In this document: positions 35-20,417 of the stretch, piece by piece
How the letters are laid out: each line of letters opens with the position of its first letter
Numbering within the stretch: the stretch's first letter is position 1
DNA from: a virus
Lineage: Duplodnaviria; Caudoviricetes
Reading direction: 5' to 3' (one strand)
IMG/VR virus record: IMGVR_UViG_3300035544_000029
Location: 1-48,387 of that record
DNA length: 48,387 nucleotides
Notes under the pieces: generated by a model
Seen by the model: only the letters and a program-made list of their open reading frames with translations
What the model was told of the DNA's origin: nothing
The model's database searches: none
Translations under genes and position numbers: made by a program

Positions 35-128
35 GCATAACAATGTATAAAATTAATGCGCTATGTTACGTTAGTGCTATTATTTAAGTGTTGTGGTTAG
101 CGCACTAATCTTATACTAACCGTTATAG
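35..128 (+). repeat. attC-like hairpin A
   Basis: GCATAAC (35-41) ... GTTATAG (122-128); left arm aac-aat-gtataaaattaatgcgcta matches the reverse complement of the right arm, aac-ggtta-gtataagattagtgcgcta. Confidence 0.8.
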
Positions 129-139
129 TCCAGTTTGCC

Positions 140-394
140 CTAAAAATGTTCTCCACATTCTAAACACATTTCATGGTGTTTACCAGTAACAGCAATATTA
201 TCAGAGCCGCAGTTTGGGCAAACCGTATCTATAACAAGCGGTAATACACCATTATTTTTAACTGCTTCCTGTAAAAATTTCATCATCTTCCTGCTATTAT
301 TAGCACTCGGGCGCTCAAATATTCTAAATTCTTCCTCCACCTGTTCAAGTAGTTCATTAAGTTCTTCCTGTGTCATAATTGTTTCGTTTTTCAA
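140..394 (-). CDS. small Zn-ribbon protein, cassette-borne
   Basis: CPNC...CLEC motif; the ORF starts inside hairpin B (likely ATG near 376) and reads through its left arm (NGVLPLVI). Confidence 0.65.
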   Translation of the reverse strand: MKNETIMTQEELNELLEQVEEEFRIFERPSANNSRKMMKFLQEAVKNNGVLPLVIDTVCPNCGSDNIAVTGKHHEMCLECGEHF

Positions 395-434
395 ATCCGT
401 TAAAAATCACGGTGCATACCGCCAGCCGTTATAA
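229..434 (+). repeat. attC-like hairpin B
   Basis: CTATAAC-aa-gcggtaatacacc ... ggtgcataccgc-cagcc-GTTATAA; the flank gggcaaac..ctataac is complementary to the cassette start gttatagtccagtttgccc at 122. Confidence 0.8.
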
Positions 435-719
435 GCCATTTGAAGTGCATTTTCTGCATTTTACCCCTCATTTTGGAGCATTTTTCTCAATAAGTGTGCA
501 TCAAAGGTATATTTTAACCCTCGTTTAGTCAATATCACTTAACTTTCTTTGTGATTCTTTACATTTCATTAATGGCTAAATTCCAACATCAAATACACAC
601 TCAAAATCGCGGCCTATGTAATTGCCTGTTTTTCACTATCGACAGCCCGCGCTCCGAGATTGGAACGCGAACATTAAAAATGTACAAAATATTGCTATGT
701 GTACATTACAAAAAAGTGG

Positions 720-950
720 CTATTTTGATTTTGGCGGGCGTTTAGCTTCCAGATATTCAAACAAAACCAGGTCGATTAATTCAAAAGGAGAGATACACTC
801 TATCTCTAAATAGGGTATTCCCTTGTCTGCGTGCCCGGCTTCGTTGGGGGTAAAGCTAATTATGACTTTGCCATCGGGGGAAGCCCCCTCATATTGGAGG
901 GTTCCCCACATCATCACTCTTTTTAGTTTCTCTGCCTGTGTCCGCTTCAT
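720..950 (-). CDS. hypothetical protein (putative early region)
   Basis: ORF co-oriented with neighbours, AT-rich leader. Confidence 0.6.
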   Translation of the reverse strand: MKRTQAEKLKRVMMWGTLQYEGASPDGKVIISFTPNEAGHADKGIPYLEIECISPFELIDLVLFEYLEAKRPPKSK

Positions 951-1050
951 TTGTTATCATTTTTTTTAAGGATTACTAATATCCACATTACAATAACAGA
1001 TATTAATAGGGCAATTCCCCATATTAGCATAAATGTTTCTTTTGGTGTCA

Positions 1051-1368
1051 TCACATCCTCATTTTAAAATACGTCATTCCGTTAGCTTCAAAATATTCAA
1101 CTGCCCGGACTACATCCCCGATAACTATCTCCTTGCCTTCAATATAGGCATCTCTGGCGGCATCAAAAAACGGGGGAGTGCGCTCAGGATAAAGCAAGGT
1201 TATTTCATTTCCGGCCTTGTACCAAATATCTCCGGCTTCGTCAATATATGCGTAGCCATTCCGAGACGCTTCTAATTCAGCCAGCCTGTCCGGCCTTACA
1301 TCAATACCTGTGTGCCTGACCGCATCCTTGAGGGTCATTAACACCTTAACAATCCTAAATTTTTGCAT
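1051..1368 (-). CDS. hypothetical protein
   Basis: ORF in tightly packed minus-strand series. Confidence 0.65.
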   Translation of the reverse strand: MQKFRIVKVLMTLKDAVRHTGIDVRPDRLAELEASRNGYAYIDEAGDIWYKAGNEITLLYPERTPPFFDAARDAYIEGKEIVIGDVVRAVEYFEANGMTYFKMRM

Positions 1369-1379
1369 AATTTACTGTA

Positions 1380-1700
1380 TTACTGTATTACTGTTCGGTT
1401 CTTAATCTCTTTGAATGGTAGCAGGGAGAAAACTATCTCCGCATTGTCAATGATAAATTTTCTCCATTCCCATATACTCCCCATCGTCCGGGGGCATCCA
1501 AACACACGCTTTAAATAACGTTTTAGGCGGCGTTTAGTGTATATCCCGGCAAATCTCTGTACCTCATGCCCTGACTCTGTGGAGATGGTTAAAATTAGTT
1601 CTATTTTGCCGGGATGGGAGTCCATTGTGATTACCCTGGTCAGTATCCGGCCATTCTTTGCGGCCTGTTTAAATAATATTCTTTGTTCTATAATGTCCAT
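1380..1700 (-). CDS. hypothetical protein
   Basis: ORF in tightly packed minus-strand series. Confidence 0.65.
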   Translation of the reverse strand: MDIIEQRILFKQAAKNGRILTRVITMDSHPGKIELILTISTESGHEVQRFAGIYTKRRLKRYLKRVFGCPRTMGSIWEWRKFIIDNAEIVFSLLPFKEIKNRTVIQ

Positions 1701-1758
1701 GATTTTTGTTTTTACTTGTTCCGATTTTTAATCGGAGGGTCTTCATAAAAACCCTCCC

Positions 1759-2085
1759 TTAATTACCTCTGTCAGCCCATTGTTTGGGTATATAACACTC
1801 TTTAGTCCTATCCCCGGCATTTCTCAACCATGAATCAACAAAGGGAGTGCGTGTATCAGGGTGAAACAATCTTTTAGCGCTCACTTTATCAAATGTCAGA
1901 GCGTAATAAAGCCCCCTTTGTTTGACAAACTTAAATCCCTGCCTTGTTAGAGCCATACATAGCTTAGCAAATTGATATTGTTTGTCTGCCTGTGTTTTTT
2001 GTTGTCCTGCTGTCTTCATAGTTTTTTTATTATTATCTAAGCAACATCTGTTCTTTGTAAGCGAAGTATGGTCCAGCGTCTCCAC
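1759..2085 (-). CDS. hypothetical protein (true start probably MKTAG near 2019)
   Basis: ORF track; the downstream ATG avoids overlap with the next gene. Confidence 0.55.
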   Translation of the reverse strand: METLDHTSLTKNRCCLDNNKKTMKTAGQQKTQADKQYQFAKLCMALTRQGFKFVKQRGLYYALTFDKVSAKRLFHPDTRTPFVDSWLRNAGDRTKECYIPKQWADRGN

Positions 2086-2284
2086 CTTCCCAATTAAAAT
2101 AAACTACACTTGAATCCGTTACGATAGCGAAGCCACCCACATCAAACAAGGGGAACCATCCATGAAATTTTTCCTGTCTTTTATTGCAAATATCTACAAG
2201 AATTGCAGTAAATTGTGGATTGTTATTTAATTCGGTTGTACTCTCACAGCCAAAATAAAATAAAAGATTTTTCATTGCATTCAT
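2033..2284 (-). CDS. hypothetical protein
   Basis: ORF track, AT-rich leader. Confidence 0.6.
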   Translation of the reverse strand: MNAMKNLLFYFGCESTTELNNNPQFTAILVDICNKRQEKFHGWFPLFDVGGFAIVTDSSVVYFNWEGGDAGPYFAYKEQMLLR

Positions 2285-2309
2285 AGCAGTAATTTTTAAT
2301 TGTTATTTG

Positions 2310-2555
2310 TTAGTCTAATTCTTGTGATGCATATTGTTTAAACCAGTTGTAGATAGAAGTTACAACTCCCCGCTTTCCCCTTGTTATCTTATCTACAAAG
2401 GTCATTCTCCCGGCTTCGTCTGTCTCGTACAAATCATCTTTGTCTGATTCAAAGAAAAAACCCCTAATTGTCCCTTCATATTTACGCTCAAAAAATACGC
2501 GCGATGATGGGATGCTCTTAATCTGTCCTGTAATTTCTTTTTTTGTGAGTCTCAT
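2310..2555 (-). CDS. hypothetical protein
   Basis: ORF track, AT-rich leader. Confidence 0.6.
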   Translation of the reverse strand: MRLTKKEITGQIKSIPSSRVFFERKYEGTIRGFFFESDKDDLYETDEAGRMTFVDKITRGKRGVVTSIYNWFKQYASQELD

Positions 2556-2634
2556 GGCTGTTAATTTAAAAATTTCTGGCTTATGCCATTGTGCCCGGAT
2601 TAGAAACCAATCCGCACCGGGCGGTTAGAAGGTC

Positions 2635-2916
2635 TTAAATCTTATTAAATCTTTTCATACCGTCAAACTTGCGGCTTTTTACACTCTCCCCCTCATTAAG
2701 ATTGTAAAATTCTCCTAATGATAGACGCACCACGCGCCCGGTATTTAGTTTTATCTCCGCTCCGGCGTGGGCGGCGGCGTAAAAACCATTTACGCACTCA
2801 TCCCCACGCCACAAACTAAAATCGTGGGTTTCCGGGTGTTCCCACAGTTCAAAAACGCGGCCTGTTTCACTATCGGCGTACGTCCTGCCGGTTTGTCTTA
2901 ATGCACTTTTATTCAT
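2635..2916 (-). CDS. hypothetical protein
   Basis: ORF track, AT-rich leader. Confidence 0.6.
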   Translation of the reverse strand: MNKSALRQTGRTYADSETGRVFELWEHPETHDFSLWRGDECVNGFYAAAHAGAEIKLNTGRVVRLSLGEFYNLNEGESVKSRKFDGMKRFNKI

Positions 2917-2952
2917 AGTTATACTGTTAAACAGATTAGAGGGTCTTAAAAA

Positions 2953-3135
2953 TCATTGCCCCCATTCCTTCGTACATCTCTGAGAGATATAAACACCCAT
3001 ACCACAAAGGTGATATTCACCAACCAGGCGCCGGAGTTCTTTTCTAAACTCTTTGTGAGAGTTAAAATCATCCCGGTTTAATTCGTCCACCGTCTCAACT
3101 CCGGAAGCTGTTCGCATATTAAGGTAACGTGTCAT
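2953..3135 (-). CDS. hypothetical protein
   Basis: ORF track, AT-rich leader. Confidence 0.6.
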   Translation of the reverse strand: MTRYLNMRTASGVETVDELNRDDFNSHKEFRKELRRLVGEYHLCGMGVYISQRCTKEWGQ

Positions 3136-3231
3136 AACTTCTAATTTTTATAGATTAATATTTTGTTAAATAGGTTGGAGGGTCTTACAAAAGATATCCC
3201 AACCTACTACTCTCACATGCACATAAAGGTA

Positions 3232-3447
3232 CTAAGACAATTTAATTACAATTGGTTTGCGCTCTCCTATCTCTATATGTCCAGCTTCAATACTCATATA
3301 CTTATTTTTAAGGTAACGGTGAAGATCCTTCTTTGATTCATTAGCAAACTTCCGTTTCATTTGTGCGTAGGCGTCATCCTGTGCGTCACTCATGGATAGC
3401 TCACACAAAACGTCATAAATGCAATCAGCGAGTTTATTCGGTGTCAT
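3232..3447 (-). CDS. hypothetical protein
   Basis: ORF track. Confidence 0.55.
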   Translation of the reverse strand: MTPNKLADCIYDVLCELSMSDAQDDAYAQMKRKFANESKKDLHRYLKNKYMSIEAGHIEIGERKPIVIKLS

Positions 3448-3858
3448 AATTAGTTAGTATTAAACCCAAACACACAATATAGTAACATTGTAACACCCTT
3501 TGTAGGTAACTTTGTTTGGGGGGGGTGAGAGCACTAATATAATGCCAGTTCACCCGTCAACGTTCCTACAAAATAAACAAATAAGCTACATTAATACCTT
3601 TTGTGTGTATAGATTGGTTAAAATCACAATAATTTAAGTGTTAATTAGTTAGTCAGGATTGCCCACGGGGGCGGTATTCAAGAATCAAATCACAAAATGA
3701 TCAGTTAGGGCACAATATTAGTAGGTTATACCTGGCGCGTTCACTATCAGTAAGGGGAACACGCATTGAGATTTCAGACAATGAAGCCGCGAAGGCTTTG
3801 CATTGTTGGAGGGTGCCAATGAAGCACCCCCCGGAATATTTTACTTTGTGTGTGTACA

Positions 3859-4359
3859 TTATTTAAACAAGTTGAGAGATTCGCAAATGTCAATAATAAC
3901 GGCGTCTATGTGTATGGCCTGGCCTGAAGTGGTGCGCCCCCATAGATTTTCACCCATGATCACAGGTTCCCCAGCGTCCTGGAGTTTTTCCGCCAGCCAG
4001 CCGGACACTAACCACCATTCTAAAATTTCCTGCGGTTCGTCTTCAAGACCCTCTAATTCGGATATTTCATCCCTTATTGCGTCCTCTTTTTCCTCATCTC
4101 CATTATCGTATGCTTCATCCGCCAAGGTATCCAACCGGTTAATTTCCTCACCTCTTTGATCCTCGGTTCCTCCTGCGAATTTTGCGTATTCTCCGTAATA
4201 CTCCGGGAGGGTAAACATATTTTCGACGTCATCCATAGAAAAAGGGGCTTCGCTTGATTCGTGACTGAGAATAAACTCAACCATTTGATTAACGTTTGCG
4301 TAAACTTCGCGCTCTACAAATTCGCTTGCGATTCTTTGTTTGTTTGCTGTTGCGTTCAT
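3859..4359 (-). CDS. highly acidic phage protein (possible DNA mimic / anti-restriction)
   Basis: very D/E-rich 166 aa with EWWLVS..LAEKL..GE..WGRTTSGQAI; first gene after the promoter at 4424-4431. Confidence 0.6.
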   Translation of the reverse strand: MNATANKQRIASEFVEREVYANVNQMVEFILSHESSEAPFSMDDVENMFTLPEYYGEYAKFAGGTEDQRGEEINRLDTLADEAYDNGDEEKEDAIRDEISELEGLEDEPQEILEWWLVSGWLAEKLQDAGEPVIMGENLWGRTTSGQAIHIDAVIIDICESLNLFK

Positions 4360-4423
4360 AACAAAAGTTTTAAAGTTAATAAATTAGTGGTTTGACTTCG
4401 TGTTATCTGTAATGTTCTACGAA

Positions 4424-4431
4424 CAAATCTA
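4424..4431 (-). promoter_or_regulatory. Bacteroidota-type -7 promoter element (TAGATTTG)
   Basis: matches TAnnTTTG upstream of the leftward gene series. Confidence 0.5.
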
Positions 4432-5232
4432 AGCCCTTTTCCTGCGTCCACCAAATAAAAACTGTTAAAAGAAAGTTAATGAACACTAAAGAAAGTTAAA
4501 GCGTTTAGCCGGTGAACGTATCATTTTAAAGATCAAAGCAGAGCGCCCGACAGGCGCGGGTTTCGTCTCGTTCCGCCACGGGAGAAACAAAACAAACAGA
4601 CTGCAAAGATTACACAGTTGTATTTGCCCACACAGTTAAACGGGCTTTGCCCACCAAAACAAAAGACCCTCCACCATCACACCAAGCCGCAGCACCCGGA
4701 AGCATACAAGCACACACCGAACACCAAGCAGTCAAAATAAAAAGCTGAAAATTTGAAAGGCAAACCGGTTCCGGCATTTGGCGAGCGACCGGGGGTGTCT
4801 TCGCCCAGGGGGTGAGGGCGACTATTTGCAGGGGGATTATCCCATATACCCCCCACTACAAGAAAAAATAACATCTATATAACTGCTTGTTATCTCACTA
4901 CAAGAACCTGATATTTCACATTCATAGTACTACAATAAAGCCTATTGGCTGATTGTGGCTGTCCCTTGTAAGTTAAATAAGGTTAATGCGGTGGTGTATT
5001 GTTTGGGTTATTGTTATATTTGGGTTTTATAGACCCTCTAACGATGTTCACGAATAATATATGTACACGTAACGTGAACGAGGATTAACTTTGAACACGA
5101 TTTAAGGGGATTAAATATAATTTTGGTAGTAGTGGATAGGTGGAGACGAGTTAAGCTAAATTTTGGGCTTATTTTGAATAAATTGATATTTCAGTAGTGT
5201 ATATACGGAAATTACATTCAAACAGGTGTGAA

Positions 5233-6438
5233 CTACCCATGAGCTAAAGACTCATGGGCTTCGGGCTTCACAGAGGAACGGCCTTTCAAAAGATTGGTTC
5301 TTACTTCCTCTCCACCCGTGTAATCGACAGTTCCTGCCGATATATGGTTTAATCCGAAACGAAGAATATTGATAGCGGCATTAACATCACGGTTATGATG
5401 AGTATGGCAAATAGGACACTCCCACTCACGGACAGACAAATCTTTAGTCTGTTTGTTGACATATCCACAGACATTACAAGTCTGCGAGGAGGGGAAGTAT
5501 CGGTCTATTTTCACAACCTTTTTGCCGTTCCATTCTGCCTTGTAGGTAAGCATGGAAACGAAGCTACCCCAGCTTGCATCAGTAATGGATTTGGCGAGGT
5601 GACGGTTTCTCTCCATACCCTTTACATTCAAATCCTCGATGCAGATGGTATCATATCTTCTAACAAGGGAAATGGAGCACTTATGCAGATAGTCTGCACG
5701 ACTATTAGCAATCTTATCGTGAAGTCTGGCAACTTTGAGCTTTTGGTTTTCAAACCCTCTGCTGCCTTTCTTCTTACGGGAAAGATGCTGCTGTGCTTTA
5801 GCAAGTTTGCGCTCGTATATTCTTGTGTAGCGGTTATTCTTAAAAGTCTCTCCCTCGGAAGTGATAAGCAAGTCCTTCAAACCCATATCAACACCAATCG
5901 ACTTATTAGTCTTTTCAAGCGGAGTTACGTATTCTTCTTCTGTAAATACAGAAACGAAATACTTGCCGCTTGGTGTCTTGGAAATAGTTACCTTGCCGAT
6001 TTTGCCTTTTATCTCACGGTGTACACGGCACTTGATACCCTCCTTGAACTTGGGTATAAAAAGCCTGCCACCTGCGACAGATGCAAATTGCGGAACGGTG
6101 AAACTATTTTTGGAGCGCTTGGATTTGAACTTAGGAAACTTCGCACGCTTCTGAAAGAAATTAGTATAGGCTACTTCAAGACTTCGTATAGCGAACTGCA
6201 AGGTTTGAGAATTTACTTCTTTAAGCCATGCGGTTGCTTCTTGCTTCTTCAATTCGGTAAGAGTCTTGGCTTGTGCGTAATAATTATCGCTTTTACCAGT
6301 GAGTCTATATTGCTCTTTACGTTGATTGAGAAAGTAATTATACACAAATCGAGCGCAACCGAAATGCCTTGCCAGCAAATCGGCTTGCACCTTATTCGGG
6401 TACAGTCTGAACTTGTATGTTCGATTAATCTTTCTCAT
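5233..6438 (-). CDS. tnpB: RNA-guided endonuclease TnpB
   Basis: MRKINRTYKFRLYP start, HTH, RuvC GVDMG / IEDL / RDVNAA, CNVC..CPIC zinc finger. Confidence 0.95.
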   Translation of the reverse strand: MRKINRTYKFRLYPNKVQADLLARHFGCARFVYNYFLNQRKEQYRLTGKSDNYYAQAKTLTELKKQEATAWLKEVNSQTLQFAIRSLEVAYTNFFQKRAKFPKFKSKRSKNSFTVPQFASVAGGRLFIPKFKEGIKCRVHREIKGKIGKVTISKTPSGKYFVSVFTEEEYVTPLEKTNKSIGVDMGLKDLLITSEGETFKNNRYTRIYERKLAKAQQHLSRKKKGSRGFENQKLKVARLHDKIANSRADYLHKCSISLVRRYDTICIEDLNVKGMERNRHLAKSITDASWGSFVSMLTYKAEWNGKKVVKIDRYFPSSQTCNVCGYVNKQTKDLSVREWECPICHTHHNRDVNAAINILRFGLNHISAGTVDYTGGEEVRTNLLKGRSSVKPEAHESLAHG

Positions 6439-6498
6439 ATCGCTTACAAAGATAGTAATTATTTTGTAAACAACAAAACTTTTTCGTATATTTATGGC

Positions 6499-6903
6499 AT
6501 GGAAGAAAATTATAATCACAAAAATAGGCATAAGTATTACCTAAAATGTCACCTTGTATTTTGTATTAAATACAGAAGAAAAATACTCAATGGTGATTTT
6601 GATAACGACATCAAAGCAGTATTTCTGTCAATAGCGGATAATTCTGATTTCAATATTGATATTATGGAAACAGACAAAGACCATATACACTTTCTAATTA
6701 GTTATCCACCAAACATATCTGTAACATCAATAGTTCGGAAACTAAAACAAGAGAGTACAATTTTTGCTTGGCACTTATATAGTACGATGTTGAGAAAATA
6801 CTTTTGAAAAGAGAAAACATTATGGTCGGATGGATACTTCGCATGTTCCATAGGTGAAGCAAATCCAAACACAATAAGGGAGTATATCAGACAACAAGGA
6901 TAG
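6499..6903 (+). pseudogene. tnpA: Y1 (HUH) transposase TnpA with an internal TGA
   Basis: HLVFCIKYRR and DHIHFL motifs; KYF*KEKTLWSDGYF with TGA at 6805-6807 where W is expected; the frame continues to IREYIRQQG* at 6903. Confidence 0.9.
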
Positions 6904-6973
6904 TGCCTTACATCCCACAAGCTAAAGACTTGTGGTTTTTACGGCACTTGCTATAAATTGTTTAATTTAAAAA

Positions 6974-7237
6974 TTGATTATTATGAAAAGATTGTTAGAA
7001 CAACAGGAAGAGATTATTGATAATTATTCTCTGACCAAGGGGGCTACGGAGGATGACTTGCGTATAGCGATTAATCAGCACGCCATGGTTGTGGGGATGA
7101 ATGGAGTGTTGCGTCCTATTGAATGGGATGTGCGTCCACTATGTTCGGACACTGATGGATGTGTTTCATGTACAGTAGAGTTCGATACGATAGATGGTTC
7201 TTTTTGTGCTAAGTGTGGTCAGGTTTATCCATTTTAA
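6974..7237 (+). CDS. hypothetical protein with C-terminal CxxC pairs
   Basis: CVSC...CAKC. Confidence 0.6.
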   Translation: MIIMKRLLEQQEEIIDNYSLTKGATEDDLRIAINQHAMVVGMNGVLRPIEWDVRPLCSDTDGCVSCTVEFDTIDGSFCAKCGQVYPF

Positions 7238-7249
7238 ATTAATAATGTT

Positions 7250-7627
7250 ATGAGAGAGATTTTATTTAGAGGAAAAGTTTTAAGGAGTCATTCTTATCCG
7301 GAGATGGTTGGTCAATGGGTTTATGGACATTATTTTGAAGATTTAGTAGGAGGGGAATTGGAGGGTTTTATTTTTAACGCTCCCACTTCTTTTTGTGTTG
7401 ACCCTCGGACTGTTGGGCAATTCACTGGCCTTCGTGATAGCAACGAGAATAAGATATATTCTGGGGACGTTATTAAGACCCTAAGCGGTATTGCTGAAGT
7501 TGTTTTTGATAGCGGGATGTTTGCGTTAGAAAGCCCAGGAAGCGAAGCGATAGATTATGATTTGTTTTTGGTTGCCCCGATAAGTGTTATTATCGGCAAT
7601 GTATTTGAGGAACCTTTTAAACAATGA
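7250..7627 (+). CDS. YopX-family protein
   Basis: MREILFRGK...WVYG...TVGQFTGLRD.N..KIY.GD...IGNVFE signature. Confidence 0.9.
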   Translation: MREILFRGKVLRSHSYPEMVGQWVYGHYFEDLVGGELEGFIFNAPTSFCVDPRTVGQFTGLRDSNENKIYSGDVIKTLSGIAEVVFDSGMFALESPGSEAIDYDLFLVAPISVIIGNVFEEPFKQ

Positions 7628-7630
7628 ATC

Positions 7631-7846: not shown

Positions 7847-7856
7847 TAAATTAATT

Positions 7857-8330: not shown

Positions 8331-8357
8331 TTTTAATTAAGACCCTCTGAGACGAAT

Positions 8358-8390
8358 AAAGCCGAGAGTTGTTGTGACCCTCGGCTTTTT
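8358..8390. terminator. bidirectional intrinsic terminator
   Basis: aaa-gccgag ... ctcggc-ttttt between convergent genes. Confidence 0.7.
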
Positions 8391-12462: not shown

Positions 12463-13208
12463 ATATATTTTTTTAATTTATAAAATTCTAATTCAACAAA
12501 TTCCTTGTTAAATTTACCTAAATCTTTAATAATATATGGTTCATAATCTAATTTGATTATTTCATTAATTTTTATCTTATCTCTATTTTGAACTTGTTTT
12601 AAAGAATGTTTCTTAGTTATTTGTTTATAATGCCAAATACCATTCCATAAAACAGCTAATTTATAATCATCGATGATTATGTCAGCATCCCATTCATTAA
12701 ACATCTTTTTATTAAAATAAACTACTTTAAATTCTTTTTCACATAATTCAGCAAAATATATTTCATTTTTACTACGTTTATTTTGTGATTGTGCTGATGC
12801 TAATCCACCACTTCTTTCATGACCTTTTAAAGGTAAATTATATTTTGTTGCACATGATTTAGAACAAAATCTTTGTTTCGTTTTTTTCTGTTTAAAAACC
12901 AAACCACAAAAATCACAATTAATTTCACGTGTTTTACTAAATTTCTTTGATAAAAGAAATTTATTCTGCTCACTCATTACTCTTTTATTAGAACAACTAC
13001 GTGAACAATAATATTTCTCTTTCTTTGGAAAGAGTTTTTCACGTTCATTAATAATTATTTCTTCACCACAAGCATTACAATTAACCTTGAAATCTTTATA
13101 TTGACCATACTTCTTATTATTCCTAATTTTACTCTGATGTTTGTTTTGACAACTAATACTACAATATTTATTAGTTACATCATTACCACAAAATAAGCAT
13201 TTATTCAT
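12420..13208 (-). CDS. Zn-finger repeat + Vsr/EDxHD-like putative homing endonuclease
   Basis: three CxxC...Y/FCSxSC repeats, then SKNE...DADIII...LWNGIWH...RDKIK; very AT-rich. Confidence 0.7.
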   Translation of the reverse strand: MNKCLFCGNDVTNKYCSISCQNKHQSKIRNNKKYGQYKDFKVNCNACGEEIIINEREKLFPKKEKYYCSRSCSNKRVMSEQNKFLLSKKFSKTREINCDFCGLVFKQKKTKQRFCSKSCATKYNLPLKGHERSGGLASAQSQNKRSKNEIYFAELCEKEFKVVYFNKKMFNEWDADIIIDDYKLAVLWNGIWHYKQITKKHSLKQVQNRDKIKINEIIKLDYEPYIIKDLGKFNKEFVELEFYKLKKYIAGWCNWQHSRLIT

Positions 13209-13244
13209 AATATTCAAATTTATTATAAATACTACGATATATTT

Positions 13245-13305
13245 AATCGAACCATCATACTCCTTCTTACGAGACAGGGCTGTAACCAACTTCAGCTATC
13301 CCGCT
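13245..13305 (-). pseudogene. 5' part of an interrupted tRNA (anticodon loop CT-CGT-AA)
   Basis: AGCGGGA-TA-GCTG..CAGC...GATGG-TTCGATT; pairs perfectly with CCATC-TCCCGCT-ACCA at 12375-12390. Confidence 0.75.
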
Positions 13306-13377
13306 TGGTCGGGGTTTTTGTCAATCTCTCTGAGTGTTCCCCGTGACCCTCAGTTCATCCGGGCGCTACCCGTCATC

Positions 13378-13454
13378 CGCTCCCCAACCCGGACTCGAAC
13401 CGGGATTTCTCACATCTCGTGTAAGCATCTCTTCCAAATTGAGTTATTGGGGTG
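13378..13454 (-). pseudogene. tRNA-like pseudogene
   Basis: CCCCAA/TTGGGG acceptor and perfect CCCGG-TTCGAGT-CCGGG T-arm; non-canonical anticodon loop. Confidence 0.55.
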
Positions 13455-13456
13455 TT

Positions 13457-13516
13457 TGCCCCGCAAGGAGTCCAACCTCGCCTTGGATGATGTGCATTCT
13501 CAATCATCGGGGCTGT
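13457..13516 (-). pseudogene. truncated tRNA-like element
   Basis: GCCCCG/CGGGGC acceptor and CGAGG-TTGGACT-CCTTG T-like arm; no D arm. Confidence 0.35.
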
Positions 13517-13609
13517 GCTTTTGTTTTCTATGTTCTGTTCTTATTCACCCAACAGAATCATTTAGAACAAAGTTAATGTTTTTGACCCTCTAATCAAAGC
13601 CAATAATGT

Positions 13610-13825
13610 TTAATTCTTGTTATTTTTTGCGAATTTATCAGGGATAGTAATTCCTAACGCCAGGGTTATTAGCCCCACAATTACTCGCAAGACCTCCGGG
13701 TCTTTGTCATCAATGACGGCATAGATGAATAGAGCAAACGCCACAATGGCAATGTGCCGCTTTGATGATGGATTGCCGTCAGCATCCAATAGCATCCCCT
13801 TAATCCAATTTAATAATCCTCGCAT
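13610..13825 (-). CDS. small two-TM membrane protein (holin-like)
   Basis: G.PSSKR followed by two hydrophobic helices. Confidence 0.6.
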   Translation of the reverse strand: MRGLLNWIKGMLLDADGNPSSKRHIAIVAFALFIYAVIDDKDPEVLRVIVGLITLALGITIPDKFAKNNKN

Positions 13826-14310
13826 ACCTTTTTAATTATTGTTTGTACTTGACCCTCCAAGTGGCCCATATCTCTGTGATTCAATATTACATTGTCGAAC
13901 ATACATCCGTACTTGTAGTCTTTGTCTCTGTCAAATCTCTCGGGTGTTGTTCGTTGCTTTCGCTCTTCCGTGGGAGCCAACACCAATACTTTTGTCACTT
14001 CAAACCGAGGGTCTTCCATTAACATCTTCAATCCCACTTCATCAATAACGTAGGAATAGCATGGCTTGTTTCCGAAAATAACACCACAATATTTGTACCC
14101 TCCATATACTGTTTCAGCAATTTTACCCTCTATCTTACCAAAGGCTTCTTCGCTAACAAACACATGATGTGTGTCATTTTCGTCTCTTTTAGGACGTGTC
14201 GTATGAGAAGTTACTGGCGGAATCCCATGCTTTTTTAGAATATCTGCAATGGTTGATTTCCCAGATCCACTCTTCCCAATGATGGCTATTATTTTTATTT
14301 TTTTACTCAT
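13810..14310 (-). CDS. guanylate-kinase-like P-loop kinase
   Basis: IIGKSGSGKST, SHTTRPKR..E, FVS. Confidence 0.85.
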   Translation of the reverse strand: MSKKIKIIAIIGKSGSGKSTIADILKKHGIPPVTSHTTRPKRDENDTHHVFVSEEAFGKIEGKIAETVYGGYKYCGVIFGNKPCYSYVIDEVGLKMLMEDPRFEVTKVLVLAPTEERKQRTTPERFDRDKDYKYGCMFDNVILNHRDMGHLEGQVQTIIKKVCEDY

Positions 14311-14567
14311 TGTCAATAACAAATTTAACTCCAAAAATTTCTTTGATAGTCCTATGCTTCTTAACGCCATTGTAACTCATATTGTGCTTAATGGCATATT
14401 ATGGTATTGTTTGCAGGTTCAAATAACCTCCGGCACGTTCAATGAATTGAACTAAAAAGCCATTTGGATGGTCGCTTTGCATCACATATTTATGCAAGTT
14501 CAATTCAAGTTTTCTCTCAAACTCCTTATATGTAAGGCTTTCCATATGGTTCAATTTATTGAATTAA

Positions 14568-14582
14568 TGTTACAATTACGTT
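14568..14582 (+). repeat. putative cassette insertion target, copy 1
   Basis: TGTTACAATTACGTT, identical to 17237-17251, at the left border of a cassette array. Confidence 0.65.
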
Positions 14583-14601
14583 GTGTTGCATTAAAAACGA
14601 C

Positions 14602-15018
14602 AACACAACACGCAATATAGCAAATACTACGTGCGTGTGTCGTTTCAGCGTCAGTGCTTATTCGGAGCAAAATGCCCCCACCGCACAATTAAACAGGCGT
14701 AATGTCAAGGTAATACTCTTTACCTTCTTCAAACGCATTGCTGGCCTCAGTTTCATAGCTAATTGTTAGCGACAAACTACCAGCGGGGGTAAACTTTGAA
14801 AAGGATTTATTTTCATCACTGCCTTCCAAAACAGGTGAAAATTCAACTTCCTTTTGTTCAAATTCTGGGGAATCTGTAATTCCCACACATTCAAATTTAG
14901 CTCTAACTTTACTCATAATAAAAAGGGTTTTACAAAGCCCGCCCAAGGCATTTTTTGTTCTGTCGTTGTTTGTTAGTTAATTTTTTGCCGTACGTGCCAT
15001 ATTGCTTACACGTTATAG
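14602..15018 (+). repeat. attC-like hairpin C with a whole gene in its loop
   Basis: ACACAAC-ac-gcaatatagca...tac / gta.gtgccatattgc-ttacac-GTTATAG; the start gttgtgttg (14580) complements caacacaac. Confidence 0.7.
14689..14916 (-). CDS. conserved small phage protein (cassette-borne)
   Basis: MSKVRAKF.C...EN..F.K.TP.G...F..GKEYYLD. Confidence 0.75.
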   Translation of the reverse strand: MSKVRAKFECVGITDSPEFEQKEVEFSPVLEGSDENKSFSKFTPAGSLSLTISYETEASNAFEEGKEYYLDITPV

Positions 15019-15034
15019 TGCATTTGCCCACGCA

Positions 15035-15301
15035 CTACGGAAGTTCAATATAGAAACCCCCACGCTCAACCATCACTTCCATTCCTGCAATCTCTTCTTT
15101 GTCATAACCTTCCTCAATCAATTCCGACTTAGTTCTTAATTCACATGGGTCGTCATCACCTGTCCAAATCAAATGACTGTTACTAATTTTGGCATCACCC
15201 AGCCCGCTCAATGTTTTATTACTTGCAACCACTATTAAATCTTGGTTTAATTGCTCTTTACTCATTTTGTCGAGCTTCTTTTTTAAGTCTTTAAGTTTCA
15301 T
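15035..15301 (-). CDS. hypothetical protein (cassette-borne)
   Basis: single ORF between GTTATAG (15012) and CTATAAC (15337). Confidence 0.65.
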   Translation of the reverse strand: MKLKDLKKKLDKMSKEQLNQDLIVVASNKTLSGLGDAKISNSHLIWTGDDDPCELRTKSELIEEGYDKEEIAGMEVMVERGGFYIELP

Positions 15302-15336
15302 CTTTTACTGTTTTAATGCCTACCCGCAAAAACGCA

Positions 15337-15468
15337 CTATAACATGCGGTCATAAAAAATTGCGGTGTAAGCGGTTAATATTTAATTTTCTACATTTATT
15401 CAAGTTCATTGGTTAGCGGAAAGTCGTGCAGTTAAATCCGCAACTTTTCATACCGCCAGCCGTTACCC
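15337..15468 (+). repeat. attC-like hairpin D
   Basis: CTATAAC-at-gcggtcataaaaaattgcgg ... ccgcaacttttcataccgc-cagcc-GTT; gcactataac complements the cassette start gttatagtgc. Confidence 0.85.
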
Positions 15469-15872
15469 ATACTCTTAATGCTCTCATCAGGAAGCCATAT
15501 TTCTCGATAGGGCTTTTTAACATACTCTTCTAATGGGTATATTTTATCATTTGCTTTGAAGCATTTATGGGTATGACCCTCTATGTCTATCACGTTGCAA
15601 TGGTTTTTCAGGTTGCAAGCAGACATAAATCTCATCCAATGAATCCTGTCTATACCAGGATTTCCAAATGATTTCAGCCCTAAAGCCTCCTGAGTCTCCA
15701 TGTTTCTCTGTAAATCATCAGCAATAAATTGCTTTTGATCATCACTCCACCTCTCCCAATATGCCTCCACCAACTGTGATGGAAGCATAGCGGAAGAGAT
15801 GGTTTGTCTGTTCATGGCATACCTAATAGCCATAATACAGGTTTCCCATTCTATTTCTGTGAGTGGTTTCAT
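15432..15872 (-). CDS. hypothetical protein; C-terminus supplied by hairpin D
   Basis: MAIRYAM.RQT...W motif; last codons (NGWRYEKLRI) read through the attC-like arm. Confidence 0.7.
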   Translation of the reverse strand: MKPLTEIEWETCIMAIRYAMNRQTISSAMLPSQLVEAYWERWSDDQKQFIADDLQRNMETQEALGLKSFGNPGIDRIHWMRFMSACNLKNHCNVIDIEGHTHKCFKANDKIYPLEEYVKKPYREIWLPDESIKSMGNGWRYEKLRI

Positions 15873-16120
15873 AATACAGCTACTACGTTTTCGTACAGCA
15901 CCAGAGACGTTCCGTCCTCCAATGGCACTTCCGTGTTTTGCTTATACAGGATGTGGTCTCCGGCTTCCAAGTTAATAGGATGTTTGGGCGTTCCTTTACC
16001 TGTGCGTAACACTTTACCAATGGACGGCTTTATGTTTTCAGCGTTTGGCAGGAATATTCCTGCTTTAGTAGTCTTATCGACTTTTTTCTCAATGATGATT
16101 TTATTTAATATTGGCTCCAT
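15869..16120 (-). CDS. groES: GroES-like co-chaperonin (second copy)
   Basis: KTTKAGIFLP...GKVLRTGKG...GDHILY. Confidence 0.8.
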   Translation of the reverse strand: MEPILNKIIIEKKVDKTTKAGIFLPNAENIKPSIGKVLRTGKGTPKHPINLEAGDHILYKQNTEVPLEDGTSLVLYENVVAVL

Positions 16121-16123
16121 AGC

Positions 16124-17203
16124 TTAATTATTTATCATTAATGGCATAATAAGAGATGTCATATTGTCTTCTCCTTGGATAATGGCCGCACGCGAGGGTT
16201 CTGACATCTTAAATGTTACTTCCTTGCTGTTTATGTTCCTCAATAGCCCGGCCAAAAATATTCCGTTAAAACCAATGGTTATATTGGCATGACCCTCGTA
16301 TGTCATTTTCTCTTCCCCTGAACGGCCAAATTCTATGTCGGAAGCCGTAATGACAAGATTATTGTTTTGAAACGACATATTAACCACATGGGAAATATTG
16401 GACACGCTTACAATCCTGGATAGGATGGCTTGAAGAGTATTTTTGTCTAACTTGGCTTCTTGGCTGAACTCGGTTGGAACAACAGACCTATAAGCAGGAT
16501 AATGACCCTCTTGCTTAACTTGAACAATGCGTTTGTTACTTGATTCTAACACTACTAAACCGCTATTGCTTTTGACTGTTATTTCAGACCCTCCCATTGA
16601 CGGAATGTGAGAAGCAACGTCCAAGGACAGCAATAGGCTTACATTTTCTTTGGGTTGACCCTCAATGTGTTCCGTCATTACCAATCTGTGACTGTCTGTA
16701 CCAACAAATGTAATGTTGTCCTGCTGAATATCCATATTGACAGAACTGAATACTGGCCGGAGGTCATCAGGCACGATAACACTCTTGGCGGCATTAACAG
16801 CGGAGATAAACTCTTCTCCTGTAAATGTCACAACCTCTTCGCAATCAGAGCTGTCGTAGTTTGGATAGTCCTTTGGGTCTTCCATAGCAATCTCATACTT
16901 TCCGTTTGAGTGTTTTACAATTAGCCTGTGCTTAATGAAGTCGGGAGTAATGTCAAGATTGCCTGATAGCTTTCCGATAAGGTTCTTGAAGTCCTGCCCC
17001 GATACGGCAAAGCTAATATCCTGACTCGAATCCACGGAGAGTGACGTGTAGAAGCCTGTCTCTTGGTTAATGCCCCTCATATACATAACATTGTTTTTAA
17101 CGTCACATACAATATTGGCATGAGCCGGAATGATTGTCTTTGATTTGATTCCTCTGGCGCAAAATGTTAGCGCATAATTTAGTTCTGATTGTTCTACATT
17201 CAT
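16124..17203 (-). CDS. dnaN: DNA polymerase III beta subunit (sliding clamp)
   Basis: 359 aa; RPVF, GTDSHRL, G.YP.Y..V.P, IGFN..FL, LIMP. Confidence 0.92.
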   Translation of the reverse strand: MNVEQSELNYALTFCARGIKSKTIIPAHANIVCDVKNNVMYMRGINQETGFYTSLSVDSSQDISFAVSGQDFKNLIGKLSGNLDITPDFIKHRLIVKHSNGKYEIAMEDPKDYPNYDSSDCEEVVTFTGEEFISAVNAAKSVIVPDDLRPVFSSVNMDIQQDNITFVGTDSHRLVMTEHIEGQPKENVSLLLSLDVASHIPSMGGSEITVKSNSGLVVLESSNKRIVQVKQEGHYPAYRSVVPTEFSQEAKLDKNTLQAILSRIVSVSNISHVVNMSFQNNNLVITASDIEFGRSGEEKMTYEGHANITIGFNGIFLAGLLRNINSKEVTFKMSEPSRAAIIQGEDNMTSLIMPLMINN

Positions 17204-17236
17204 GTGATAAAAGATTAGTTTATTTTTTTAAAGTGC

Positions 17237-17251
17237 TGTTACAATTACGTT
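17237..17251 (+). repeat. putative cassette insertion target, copy 2
   Basis: TGTTACAATTACGTT, identical to 14568-14582. Confidence 0.65.
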
Positions 17252-18071
17252 AGTGGCAATGCTTACCGAACACTCGACCAACAGCCAACTCATAGTATTT
17301 TACCTCTTTTTCAATCCCAATAAAATGACGGTTCAACTCCTTTGCTCCTAAACAAGTTGTGCCTACTCCCATTGTGTTATCCAAAATCATATCATTTTCG
17401 TTTGAGTACGTGGATATAAGGTATTTTACAAGTTCCAAAGGTTTTTGAGTAGGGTGTATTGGCTTTGGTTCATTATTAAAATTTAAAACAGTGGTAGGAT
17501 AGTTTGTATATTTTTGCAAATACTCTTTTGATTGTGATTTTCTATAATAATTATGCCCTTCAAAATCAGCACTACATTTATTTTTATCTCCATGCCTTGT
17601 TTTATTTATTTCTATTAAACCTTGCGGATTGTAAAGCATAATATTTTCATTCCCTGCCGCAGTAATAAATTTTGAAAAAACGGATATATTTTCATTTTGA
17701 TTTAATGGTCTATTTTTTGAATTTAAAAATCCAGTTTTTCTACTTTTTACCCAAATCCAGTCATACTTATACCATTCTAAATTACTTATTCTTAACATTG
17801 TAGAAAAAGGCTCTGCTCCAAATAAAACAACAGCACCATTATCTTTTATAATACGTTTATATTGTTCCCAAAGTGGCTCTAATGGTATTATACTATCCCA
17901 TTTGCAAGCAGTTGTACCATAAGGCAAATCTGCCAAAATTAACTGAACCGATTTATCAGGAATAAGAGGTAAAATATCCATACAATCAGCATTGAACAAA
18001 GCACTGCCACTAACATCGGCTATATGCAATAGCGGGTTCGGTGCGTTATTCAACATTTGTTCTACTATCAT
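17250..18071 (-). CDS. N6A/N4C DNA methyltransferase (beta class), cassette-borne
   Basis: DLPYG, HPTQKP, LDNTMGVGTT, FIGIE; N-terminus encoded within hairpin E; stop codon lies in the GTTA core. Confidence 0.92.
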   Translation of the reverse strand: MIVEQMLNNAPNPLLHIADVSGSALFNADCMDILPLIPDKSVQLILADLPYGTTACKWDSIIPLEPLWEQYKRIIKDNGAVVLFGAEPFSTMLRISNLEWYKYDWIWVKSRKTGFLNSKNRPLNQNENISVFSKFITAAGNENIMLYNPQGLIEINKTRHGDKNKCSADFEGHNYYRKSQSKEYLQKYTNYPTTVLNFNNEPKPIHPTQKPLELVKYLISTYSNENDMILDNTMGVGTTCLGAKELNRHFIGIEKEVKYYELAVGRVFGKHCH

Positions 18072-18137
18072 ATTTTATCTATTATTTAAAGTTTTGTGTT
18101 TCTAATCCGCTACTGCACATAGCCGTAGCCGTTATAC
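18008..18137 (+). repeat. attC-like hairpin E
   Basis: CACTAAC-at-cggctatatgcaatagcgg ... ccgctactgcacatagccg-tagcc-GTTATAC; agcactgccactaac is 14/15 complementary to the cassette start gttagtggcaatgct (17249). Confidence 0.88.
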
Positions 18138-18184
18138 ACCCACAAACATATTAAGATTACGCACACAATACAACACAAAAATAT

Positions 18185-18529
18185 TTAACTATTGTTAAGA
18201 ATTCCTACATACTCAGCAACGGCTTCATAAACAGCGATTATCGGGTCTTCATTCTCTATACCAATATCAACTCCCATTCCTGTGATTAAACAAACTGTTG
18301 TATCCGAACCAATACTGACAGAGACTACGCATCCATCTGACGCCACAGCATCTACCACAGCCATTAAATCCTCCCATTTGCCATAAGGGGCATAGATTGT
18401 GGCACTGTCAAAGTCCATATATCCATCCTCTTCTGTTCTCCACCATGTGAACCCATTAGCGGAGTCAATTTTTGCTACAGGAATCCCCATGTAGTCTGCA
18501 ATCATCTTTGTTCTTTCCATGGCTTTCAC
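18185..18529 (-). CDS. hypothetical protein
   Basis: IADYMG...W..LM.VV...YEAV.EY pattern. Confidence 0.65.
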   Translation of the reverse strand: MKAMERTKMIADYMGIPVAKIDSANGFTWWRTEEDGYMDFDSATIYAPYGKWEDLMAVVDAVASDGCVVSVSIGSDTTVCLITGMGVDIGIENEDPIIAVYEAVAEYVGILNNS

Positions 18530-19803
18530 TCTTCAAAATAATAAGGAATAGGAATTTTTATTTGTGACCCTCGGTCTATATTGTAGAACCGGAATCCAGA
18601 CTTCGTGTTCTTGAAATTTGTCTTTACCCAATTACTCGGAGGGCTAAATGACGGATAGGAATAGTAACAAAAGTCATTGCTTGTAGTATCGTCAAATACA
18701 GCTTGGTGTGAGTCTCCCTTGCTAAATTCAATGAAGTTGCCGTTATATAACCCATGTTCCTTACAATATTGGTCTATCTTCTCGGCTTGTTTGGCATCCA
18801 GGAATGGCTTAAATCCGAATTTTAGGTTTTTGCTGTCCTTACCATGGGATAACAGGAATGTGTGTTTGCCTACCACGTAGTGATTGATGAATCTTTTGAA
18901 GTTGTTTATTGAGACCCTCTTTCCGTATTTAGCTTCCCCTATTTTTTTGAATGACGAAGCCACAAAGTATCCGAACACGGATGCGTGATTATCCTCTGTG
19001 ATATTGTTGCAAATGATATAATCATAGTATTGGGACAAATTATCTAATAAAGATATTTTAAAGTCCAACGCAACATCAAAGGCTTCTTTGCTATTCATGT
19101 TTTGAGGGAGAGAGTGTTCACTCCTTGCTGTCTTCCCGTTTAGCCCGTCAAGAAAATCCCCTAAATCGTCAATATAAAGCACATTTGACGACTTGAATGC
19201 TAATACATGGGCAATCATATCATCGAGACGAGAAAACAGCTTATTCCTATCCCAAATTGAATCATATAGAGGGTCACCATCATCATTGACATCCATGGCT
19301 ATGTGAACGTCTGAATAAACTAATCTATCAAACCATCTGTCATTAGGAGCTGTTGTTATGACCCTCGGCTTCGTAACAGCCTTTAGATGCTTTTCAACAA
19401 TAGTGTCTAACTCATCCTCAATGTTATTTACCATATCTTCTTCCGGCGTATAAAAAACAATGTTATACGTCATGTGAGCGGACTGGTGTGAAACGAGTTT
19501 GGATGATTTTACTGATTCAAAAGGAAGGCCGTATTTCTGACAAAACTCTTCTATGCTAAGGAATTTATTCTGTTGGGCATCCCATGCAGAGGGTAAATCA
19601 GAAAAATAATCGTTTGGCTTGGTAGTGGTGGTCTCTTCCGGGGTGCTGTCAGATGTCTCAAACCACCATTGTCCGTAAACGGGTCTTTTTTTGGAAACAG
19701 ATTTGCTTATTGCAGCGTGTGTGATGTCAAGCTCTCGTGCGGCCTGACGCATAGATTCGTAACGGCCAATAACCTCGCCGTTAGAGTTTTTTTGTAGTAT
19801 CAT
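18526..19803 (-). CDS. NUMOD1-like domain fused to a metallophosphoesterase-like domain
   Basis: N-terminal YES..QAAREL.I....IS; SDVHI, LGDFLDG, DNH, SHG, GDSH. Confidence 0.75.
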   Translation of the reverse strand: MILQKNSNGEVIGRYESMRQAARELDITHAAISKSVSKKRPVYGQWWFETSDSTPEETTTTKPNDYFSDLPSAWDAQQNKFLSIEEFCQKYGLPFESVKSSKLVSHQSAHMTYNIVFYTPEEDMVNNIEDELDTIVEKHLKAVTKPRVITTAPNDRWFDRLVYSDVHIAMDVNDDGDPLYDSIWDRNKLFSRLDDMIAHVLAFKSSNVLYIDDLGDFLDGLNGKTARSEHSLPQNMNSKEAFDVALDFKISLLDNLSQYYDYIICNNITEDNHASVFGYFVASSFKKIGEAKYGKRVSINNFKRFINHYVVGKHTFLLSHGKDSKNLKFGFKPFLDAKQAEKIDQYCKEHGLYNGNFIEFSKGDSHQAVFDDTTSNDFCYYSYPSFSPPSNWVKTNFKNTKSGFRFYNIDRGSQIKIPIPYYFEE

Positions 19804-19864
19804 AAAAGGGTTGTTTTGTTTGCATGGCCCTAAGTTACAAAAAATTATGAGAATTAATTAAATA

Positions 19865-19919
19865 CAATAACAGTTTTGTGAAACGGAGCGTAAAACGACA
19901 GCACATAAAAGCATTAGCA
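19865..19919 (+). repeat. decayed short attC-like hairpin
   Basis: CAATAAC...gtg...gtaaaacgac...cac...ATTAGCA; attagcattaatac complements gtaccaatgctaac at 20358-20371. Confidence 0.45.
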
Positions 19920-19930
19920 TTAATACTACG

Positions 19931-20329
19931 TTAGTACTCATAATCAACACCAAGCAATATAAAATCTACAGATTCAGAGTAGTATCCGTTACTTTCGCCA
20001 TACCATCTAATATCTACATATCCTTTGATTGTTGCGAATTTGTAATAAGTCCAAGTACAAGAACCCCACTCATCCGCTTCTTTTGTTCGTTCAACATCTT
20101 CTTTAGAAGTTGGCTGGTAATTAGAAACTTCTTCCGCTTTTAGTATTGGACTTCCAACTAAATCTTGTAAGTCACCAACTATATCTTCAATCGAAACACT
20201 TTCGCAACAATCTTGTCCGTGATACATTTTATATTGCTTTCCATCTTCGCAAGTAAATATTATCTCGTCATTGCCTTTGTTTTCTACTTTAGTAAGTGTT
20301 TTGCCAATCAATTCTTTTAATCTTTCCAT
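19931..20329 (-). CDS. conserved phage hypothetical protein (cassette-borne)
   Basis: [26 protein letters not shown]...[24 protein letters not shown]. Confidence 0.8.
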
Positions 20330-20364
20330 TTTATTTAAGTTTTGTATTTGTGAATTTGTACCAA

Positions 20365-20417
20365 TGCTAACAATGTGTACCAGGCATTAAAACGACTTGT
20401 TACACTCAGCGTTATCA
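20365..20417 (+). repeat. short attC-like hairpin F (53 bp)
   Basis: TGCTAAC-aat-gtgtaccagg-CATTAAAACGA-cttgttacac-tcagc-GTTATCA. Confidence 0.75.

Follow-up and report, generated by a model that had tools for sequence, protein, structure and literature searches.

Integron-like hairpin sites and exchanged one-gene cassettes at dispersed slots of a phage genome

The virus record IMGVR_UViG_3300035544_000029 is a linear phage contig of 48,387 bp, which is ~42% complete and was analysed over its whole length (hereafter, the window). Eight hairpin elements, all situated among small minus-strand genes in the first 20.5 kb, probably bound mobile one-gene cassettes that are exchanged at a G|TT crossover in five scattered slots. 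The cassettes likely recombine as folded bottom strands through an integron-like tyrosine recombinase of Bacteroidota, which has no IntI insertion and probably comes from the host. Relatives exchange cassettes at these junctions, the cassette ends are complementary, the phage genes are inverted with respect to those of hosts, and the same sites stand beside a recombinase gene in hosts and in one large phage. Homologous or illegitimate recombination is the usual explanation of phage mosaicism, whereas the strains of this one phage swap single genes at base-exact junctions. Terminase and capsid-like proteins of the window match those of Flavobacterium, Cellulophaga and Maribacter phages at 26-36%, and the host is therefore probably a member of Bacteroidota.

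Hairpins, cassettes and cargo in the window

An initial annotation of this DNA had listed six clear and two decayed hairpins, and all eight were located. A core-anchored arm scan of both strands, with 40 order-3 Markov copies as the null, showed that five of them (38-125, 232-431, 14606-15015, 15340-15465 and 18011-18134) score 13.5-18, all on the plus strand and none on the minus strand; five sites of at least 13.5 in the window stand against a mean of 0.05 per Markov copy, only 2 of the 40 copies having one. The remaining element of the clear group (20365-20417) has a background score of 9 and a fold indistinguishable from that of shuffles (z 0.26), and the decayed pair at 9228-9279 and 19865-19919 gives no statistical signal against shuffles either (z -1.47 and -0.11). 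These three, not significant alone, are backed instead by a common TAAAACGAC loop and by breakpoints in relatives. A reverse-oriented hairpin at 14424-14572 was not counted, as it reaches 15.5 only with spacers of 3 and 7 nt and was not recovered by the family scan; these inverted repeats and those at 41754-41849 lie outside the cassette family.

The elements make five slots, namely A (to 428), E (9230-9274), B (14580-15462), C (17249-18131) and D (19869-20411), which upholds the original proposal of one-gene cassettes at four or more loci. Their features are as follows.

35-128, plus strand: hairpin site 1 (TAAC 38-41, crossover G|TT 122|123; score 18), closing a cassette whose body lies beyond the contig start
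123-428, plus strand: cassette of slot A, bounded by G|TT 122 and G|TT 428 and containing hairpin 2 (TAAC 232-235); score 15 plus end complementarity; also in sequencing runs X4 and X6
140-376, minus strand: 78-amino-acid (aa) cargo gene (MTQEEL..., C-terminal Cys pairs), starting in the hairpin 2 loop and crossing its left arm; no Pfam or PHROG family match
9228-9279, plus strand: slot E, a short hairpin, decayed or chimeric, whose loop is TAAAACGAC; G|TT 9273|9274; not significant alone
14568-14582, plus strand: slot B head, TGTTACAATTACG|TT, a 15-mer identical to the slot C head
14581-15012, plus strand: first slot B cassette, consisting of a body of 12 nt (CATTAAAAACGA) plus a hairpin of 416 nt (CAAC 14606-14609, G|TT 15012); score 13.5
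14689-14916, minus strand: 75-aa gene (phrog_6978-like), entirely within the 416-nt hairpin loop
15013-15462, plus strand: second slot B cassette, hairpin 4 (TAAC 15340-15343, G|TT 15462); score 16
15035-15301, minus strand: 88-aa gene, cargo of the second slot B cassette
17237-17251, plus strand: slot C head, TGTTACAATTACG|TT with G at 17249, directly adjoining the start of the beta-clamp gene
17250-18131, plus strand: slot C methyltransferase cassette, closed by hairpin 5 (TAAC 18011-18014, G|TT 18131); score 18
17250-18071, minus strand: 273-aa N6/N4 DNA methyltransferase (PF01555), starting in the hairpin loop, its first 20 codons spanning loop and arm
19865-19915, plus strand: slot D head, a short and decayed hairpin (TAAC 19869; loop TAAAACGAC) in which the crossover has become A|TT at 19913
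19914-20411, plus strand: slot D DUF7448 cassette, short hairpin 6 (TAAC 20368, G|TT 20411)
19931-20329, minus strand: DUF7448 gene (132 aa, PF24240), cargo of the slot D cassette

The shifted complementarity that had been noticed for the pairs beginning at 17249, 15012 and 122 holds for all five complete cassettes, in which the inverse core pairs over more than 7 bp with the cassette's own upstream core. The pairing amounts to 15 of 16 pairs plus one A.C for 17249/18014, to 13 of the first 14 plus one A.C for 15012/15343, to 9 bp for 14580/14609, and to 7 bp followed by 8 more past a bulge for 122/235. The partner of the hairpin at 20368 is A|TTAGCATT at 19913, and the decayed 19865 element is therefore taken to end there. 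AAC/GTT cores and G|TT boundaries are present, the RRRY tail being loose (consensus GTTAG/T), and a free-spacer scan found spacers of 2-3 and 5 nt in the four best sites.

All cargo genes lie on the minus strand, opposite to the classical cassette direction; two start in a hairpin loop, one lies wholly within a loop and two start between cores. Neither this orientation nor the 75-aa gene within the 416-nt loop had been pointed out in the initial annotation. None of 14 loci homologous to the 75-aa gene has a hairpin. The TAA stop codon of the methyltransferase coincides with the crossover TTA. The right arm of hairpin 4 (15432-15462) encodes the final ten codons of a 146-aa backbone gene, so that the resident cassette sets the C-terminus of that protein.

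The mini body CATTAAAAACGA of slot B recurs at locus L037 and at host locus L243. As a cassette body devoid of open reading frames (ORFs), it takes the form GTT-N6-CATTAAAACGAC-N6-AAC (14581-14609; L037; L243), CATTAAAACGAC being also the loop of the short hairpins, and its variant in run X3 shows compensatory changes. The heads of slots B and C have their 15-mer in common, whereas cassette-array heads elsewhere are unrelated lone GTT sites. This 15-mer, TGTTACAATTACG, was considered as a universal phage attI or general landing pad and rejected, only 1 of 46 viral hits having a cassette-like partner.

Exchange among strains and among phages

Contigs of runs X3, X4, X6, X8 and X9 (five studies) were compared with the window over 13000-21600 and 1-10500, runs X1 and X2, as possible sources of the record, being left out. 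All five slots differ in strain-level relatives, comprising these five studies and one Joint Genome Institute contig. At slot A, a 30-kb contig of X6 matches from 121 and continues past that point for 13 kb unlike 1-120, and a contig of X4 also begins at 121. At slot E, 759 other letters lie between 9230 and 9249 in X6, and X4 has a 9230-9274 joint. Identity at slot B stops at 14578-14582 in X3, X4, X6 and X8 and resumes at 15458-15469; the first cassette was found in X3, X4 and X8, with no match in X6, and in the second, 15025-15315 is replaced by 304 other letters in X4. The X6 backbone restarts at 15458, and its slot B is occupied by a methyltransferase-type cassette. At slot C, pieces of X4 end at 17247 and start at 18130 and a piece of X6 starts at 18129, the methyltransferase cassette being replaced in both, and the loose contig ends resemble other hairpin arms. 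Locus L100, which is 97% identical to the window on the clamp side and 82% on the other side, carries in slot C another cassette, 340 bp long and with complementary ends of its own, between exactly the same two G|TT junctions. At slot D, X4 and X6 diverge after 19877, with 734 other letters between 19877 and 20410. Two joints in X8, 19853-20412 (which might be an empty slot D) and 14945-14607, have low depth and intervening letters that are unknown or unexplained, and they were too weak to count as support. A search of viral contigs with the beta-clamp returned no relative.

Beyond these strains, the same cassettes occur in unrelated Bacteroidota-type phages. Among 79 methyltransferase loci, 19 align at full length (two pairs being duplicates), and in all 19 the left end lies at G|TTAGTGG, with 5-13 of the 30 upstream bases in common. 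The right end, judged by eye, is a hairpin arm at GTT in 16 of 18 untruncated homologues; the hairpin of L026 is a hybrid, and the right arm has been lost from L014 and L052. At 18 cassette-type loci (17 full-length homologues and L019), 67 sites are antisense to the gene vs. 3 in the other orientation, compared with 3 and 1 at 18 control methyltransferase loci. These counts come from a first arm scanner with spacers fixed at 2-3 and 4-6 and with bottom-strand G.T pairs rewarded, so they lean towards those features, as do the consensus, mean energy and register counts given below; the fold and strand test was redone strand-neutrally. For DUF7448, identity with homologue L101 begins at 19914, preceded by G, and in homologues such as L103 and L104 the gene is not directly followed by a hairpin within the stretch viewed (20 of 80 loci). 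A plasmid search with hairpin 5 gave 7 short weak matches, and a phage search with slot B DNA gave 8 weak ones, none of them informative. One site of the family was seen in a contig labelled Brocadiaceae, outside Bacteroidota (L097:10001-10119), and two more site-bearing contigs bear the label Limnohabitans, which may reflect misbinning.

In three cultured Muminvirus genomes, arrays of 9-13 sites were found; with backbones 99.6-100% identical, these genomes differ by indels and substitutions at G|TT, including a 412-bp insertion at an otherwise empty lone site. The initial annotation had proposed looking for polymorphism at the GTT cores among relatives, and it was found in X3, X4, X6, X8, L100 and Muminvirus, so that its cassette proposal was not refuted.

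The cassettes might once have been made by site-specific recombination, the present swaps arising by homologous or micro-homology recombination via shared hairpin arms and flanking backbone. Such a process would account for the breakpoints that fall within hairpins or stems (9230/9249, 19877 and 15024/15316) rather than at G|TT, for the hybrid hairpin in L026 and the right arm lost in L014 and L052, and for slots being observed refilled, not empty. However, all 19 methyltransferase left ends stand exactly at G|TT without common upstream sequence, the array heads are unrelated lone GTT sites, and the Muminvirus insertion took place at a lone site. This explanation is considered improbable.

Site build, gene direction and the candidate recombinase

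The consensus of 88 phage sites (first scanner) is ACTG-N4-YAAC on the left and C|GTTR-N4-CAAT on the right. Bacteroidota chromosomes have sites of this consensus too, so the site family is not confined to phages; the cassette pool among Bacteroidota phages proposed at the outset finds support in the cassettes common to unrelated phages. A strand-neutral scan of 22 phage stretches found 79 sites, 74 of them with an excess of 2-4 nt on the R' side. The top strand has 131 A.C mismatches but 35 G.T, and folding energy is lower on the gene strand in 70 sites and higher in 8, which, together with the lower predicted energy of the minus strand for all eight window elements, bears out the initial claim that the minus strand folds better. 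The first, biased scanner gave a mean bottom-strand advantage of 2.4 kcal/mol. It also found that the register is kept, so that there is no conserved bulge, in most sites (77 of 84 in phages, 38 of 46 in hosts), although window sites 232 and 15340 do have a 1-nt shift.

Gene direction separates phages from hosts. Among 86 phage genes (14 loci), none is on the top strand, 53 are on the bottom strand and 33 are unassigned, whereas 57 host genes with the same sites (24 loci) divide into 46 top, 2 bottom and 9 unassigned. The same fold bias falls in hosts on the non-coding strand. Among 35 host cargo genes are those for type I and III restriction, GmrSD, MutH-like, toxin-antitoxin, immunity and transporter proteins; 15 have no Pfam match, and 2 are of immunity type (SMI1/KNR4, WapI). 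A LinB-like nucleotidyltransferase (L248:8488-9258) and a small multidrug resistance protein (L251:1591-1920) were also seen in host cassettes.

These strand data bear on whether the hairpins are fixed, vertically inherited RNA elements such as terminators or leaders. In the phage, the better-folding strand is indeed the mRNA strand and the hairpins stand at gene 5' ends. The swapping of cassettes at the cores among strains contradicts a sole RNA role, the host fold bias lies on the non-coding strand, and no Rfam family covers the hairpins (the window matches being one tRNA and two chance miRNA). This reading is regarded as most improbable, though the hairpins may have a secondary RNA role.

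The window itself encodes no detectable integrase, as first reported: Pfam and PHROG family searches of 71 ORFs revealed no tyrosine recombinase, and neither a PF00589 search nor a protein search of the whole record, ~42% complete as it is, found one. Among 17 cassette-bearing phage records, PF00589 is matched in one, and in none of the three cultured genomes or of the three records at least 90% complete. The exception was met at L086 (G001:96000-115999), where a 170-kb phage, G001, carries one array of 27 detected sites with many methyltransferase-like genes and its own 298-aa recombinase. This gene heads the array, and the 27 sites point away from it, like those of intI. The enzyme aligns with IntI4 in two pieces flanking a gap of ~43 aa, at the IntI4 insertion.

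Homologues of the G001 recombinase (E at most 1e-45) were found in 70 of 201 genomes of the phylum. A site lies within 1.5 kb at 12 of the 30 best recombinase loci, always pointing away, and when 20 of these 30, picked for long contigs, were widened to 20 kb, 15 had sites, 39 of the 41 sites pointing away from the gene. Four weaker Xer-type loci yielded one site in 74 kb. All six associated enzymes (five host and the phage one) miss the TIGR02249 cut-off, and three pass NF040815. The initial annotation had proposed looking for IntI-like genes in Bacteroidota hosts, and a tyrosine recombinase does stand beside the sites; it is, however, an enzyme without the IntI insertion.

Alternatively, the same cassettes and chemistry could be served by a recombinase encoded in the unsequenced part of this phage, the contig being linear, incomplete and beginning inside a cassette slot, and G001 carrying such an enzyme at the head of its array. 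The PF00589 search was unmatched in 16 of the 17 records, three complete cultured genomes included, and dispersed small slots fit secondary-site insertion better than an enzyme-adjacent array; a phage-encoded enzyme is thus held to be unlikely, though not negligible. Supply in trans can only be suggested for this phage because its contig is ~42% complete. Six complete or near-complete cassette-bearing phages are without PF00589, and supply in trans is therefore favoured in general, this phage's own case not being settled by the contig.

Several points weigh against host-supplied, site-specific exchange. In addition to the breakpoints within hairpins noted above, 5 of the 20 wide recombinase loci have no site, nor do L196 and L197; no site was seen at L182, a 79% identical phage homologue of which only 95 nt upstream are present. 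Elemovirus A, a cultured relative (terminase 35%), has no site of at least 12.5 in 61.7 kb. Assembled contigs showed neither an excised circle nor a clean empty site of this phage. The link of recombinase to sites is one of neighbourhood, and the missing part of the contig leaves room for a phage-encoded enzyme.

If cassettes are exchanged by a host recombinase, the excised cassette would pair its two ends into an outer stem of 9-16 bp, followed by the GTT/AAC core, a spacer with 2-4 nt more on the side of cleavage and an inner stem, and bottom-strand cleavage by the enzyme would occur at 5'-AA|C. The cassette could then enter either a site already present or, by analogy with attG sites, a double-stranded GTT standing alone; this would seed dispersed slots, to which further cassettes would be added at the head. 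Inversion of the gene places the hairpin at its 5' end, where it may supply start signals, and the gene may be read from the minus-strand operons of the phage. The methyltransferase would protect against host restriction. Orientation relative to replication is reported to affect excision (Loot 2017, as far as that paper was available), and inversion would, speculatively, put the folding strand on the lagging template if the genes run with replication.

In a bolder and more doubtful version, perhaps correct but with the chances against it, Bacteroidota would run a second branch of integron-type folded-strand recombination without the I2 helix, and phages would hijack this host defence-array enzyme to stock and reshuffle inverted counter-defence cassettes at scattered slots. 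New cassettes would arise by a phage gene dropping into either loop of an empty dumbbell cassette, and 14581-15012 may be a snapshot of such a birth, with the standard CATTAAAACGAC outer loop, a whole gene in the inner loop and homologues elsewhere that are not in cassettes.

Cassette exchange would give a phage a quick way to change accessory genes, e.g., a DNA methyltransferase. If a host recombinase is responsible, one system would feed both sides of an arms race (restriction, toxin-antitoxin and immunity in the host; methyltransferases in the phage). An enzyme without the I2 insertion, working on sites without extrahelical bases, would widen the rules of folded-strand recombination, and the gene-in-loop unit at 14581-15012 bears on how cassettes are made. 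Cultured Muminvirus isolates differ by such cassettes, which leaves the question open to test in culture.

Other features of the window were also recorded. An IS200/IS605 insertion sequence (TnpA and TnpB) at 5227-6951 is cleanly missing from runs X4 and X6. The word GACCCTC has 68 copies in 1330-47016 (38 plus, 30 minus), ~25 times the base-composition expectation and mostly preceded by A or T. Neither the insertion sequence nor the cassette slots contain it (0 of 68 copies in the four larger slots vs. ~3.8 expected), and its absence from the slots counts in favour of mobile cassettes. The word is present in close relatives and found in only 3 copies in Elemovirus A, and it may form a protein-binding or priming grid. 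AT-rich 21-bp repeats at 22435-22537, just ahead of a replication-initiator-like gene at 22615, are likely an origin. Three GroES-like genes (9734-10036, 15869-16120 and 33278-33877) and a minus-strand tRNA gene with a long variable arm (12378-12462) were found as well.

Comparison with known systems

A classical attC site has inverted cores, RYYYAAC and GTTRRRY, with the crossover at G|TT, and the gene of a classical cassette lies on the top strand, upstream of its attC. The initial annotation had read the hairpins as bearing the hallmarks of attC and IntI, and the G|TT crossover, the AAC/GTT cores, the complementary ends and the more stable bottom strand are indeed common to both. In contrast, there are here no conserved extrahelical bases, the spacer excess of 2-4 nt lies on the R' side, the end complementarity is 9-16 bp vs. 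7, the phage genes are inverted and start in the loop, and the associated recombinase is ~43 aa shorter at the IntI4 insertion. In classical attC sites, the bottom strand is more stable by 2.12 kcal/mol and extrahelical bases guide IntI (Nivina 2016, in the part of the paper available).

It is also conceivable that the hairpins are ordinary attC sites on which a classical, I2-containing IntI acts, since the cores, the bottom-strand G.T bias and the shifted complementarity are common to both and Qi et al. named one site of this family attC by means of HattCI. However, in the portion of that report available, IntI1 failed on this very site, the sole failure of six tested; moreover, the register is kept in the great majority of phage and host sites, and every neighbouring enzyme falls below the TIGR02249 cut-off. 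This explanation is therefore given very little weight.

That report (Qi et al. 2023, PMC9892861), in its available part, describes 17 phage-borne clusters of attC sites lacking integrases (CALINs) from a screen of 10,705 genomes. These resemble the present elements as attC-type sites without an integrase in virulent phages with methyltransferase cargo, and the Polaribacter phage site P12002L_attC1, the one on which IntI1 failed, has the build of the family, with spacers of 2 and 5 nt and a CATTAAAACGAC loop. For P12002L, two sites, called divergent, are reported there, whereas 9 co-oriented sites of at least 12.5 were found here in 18.6 kb; their attC2 resembles, by eye, a left arm with another right boundary. 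The available part reports no gene inversion, strain swaps or enzyme, and its Table S1 lists no Flavobacterium phage. Standard screens probably miss this site family. As far as the sources could be consulted, the 11 taxon models of Ghaly include none for Bacteroidota, a phylum that the Ghaly review counts among integron-bearing ones.

Single attC sites lacking integrases (SALINs) and attG sites (Loot et al., bioRxiv 10.1101/2022.09.11.507474, available in part) are similar in that isolated cassettes stand at lone GWT sites away from the integrase. By the arm scan, the window likewise holds attC-type sites with no integrase nearby, which is what marks CALINs and SALINs. They differ in that, as described there, IntI acts in bacterial chromosomes, while the present slots belong to a phage, have been refilled time and again and go with a different type of enzyme. 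By analogy, SALIN/attG insertion would be the best model for the dispersed slots.

The rAID-1 clusters of Bacteroidales (Ross et al., bioRxiv 10.1101/471110, in the part available) consist of a XerD-like recombinase followed by co-directional genes with intergenic repeats that were likened to integrons, and are recognised by a recombinase >44% identical to BF9343_RS08045 located 5' of co-directional low-GC genes. Compared by layout description only, 22 of the 41 host sites here match. The rAID-1 clusters are gut-bacterial immunity arrays, for which the available text describes no folded site, crossover or phage form; they are possibly the gut form of the host system. The window is not itself a rAID-1 cluster, because it contains no recombinase.

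Nilsson et al. 2020, in the part available, tie a plating difference of 3-4 log to a missing methyltransferase and never use the words integron or cassette. A literature search, subscription papers excepted, found no paper on inverted phage cassettes or on this site build. Phage attC clusters have already been published (Qi 2023), and what is new here is strain-level swapping at dispersed slots. The system works like integron cassettes, yet the lack of conserved extrahelical bases, its gene direction and the absence of the I2 insertion from its associated enzyme set it outside them.

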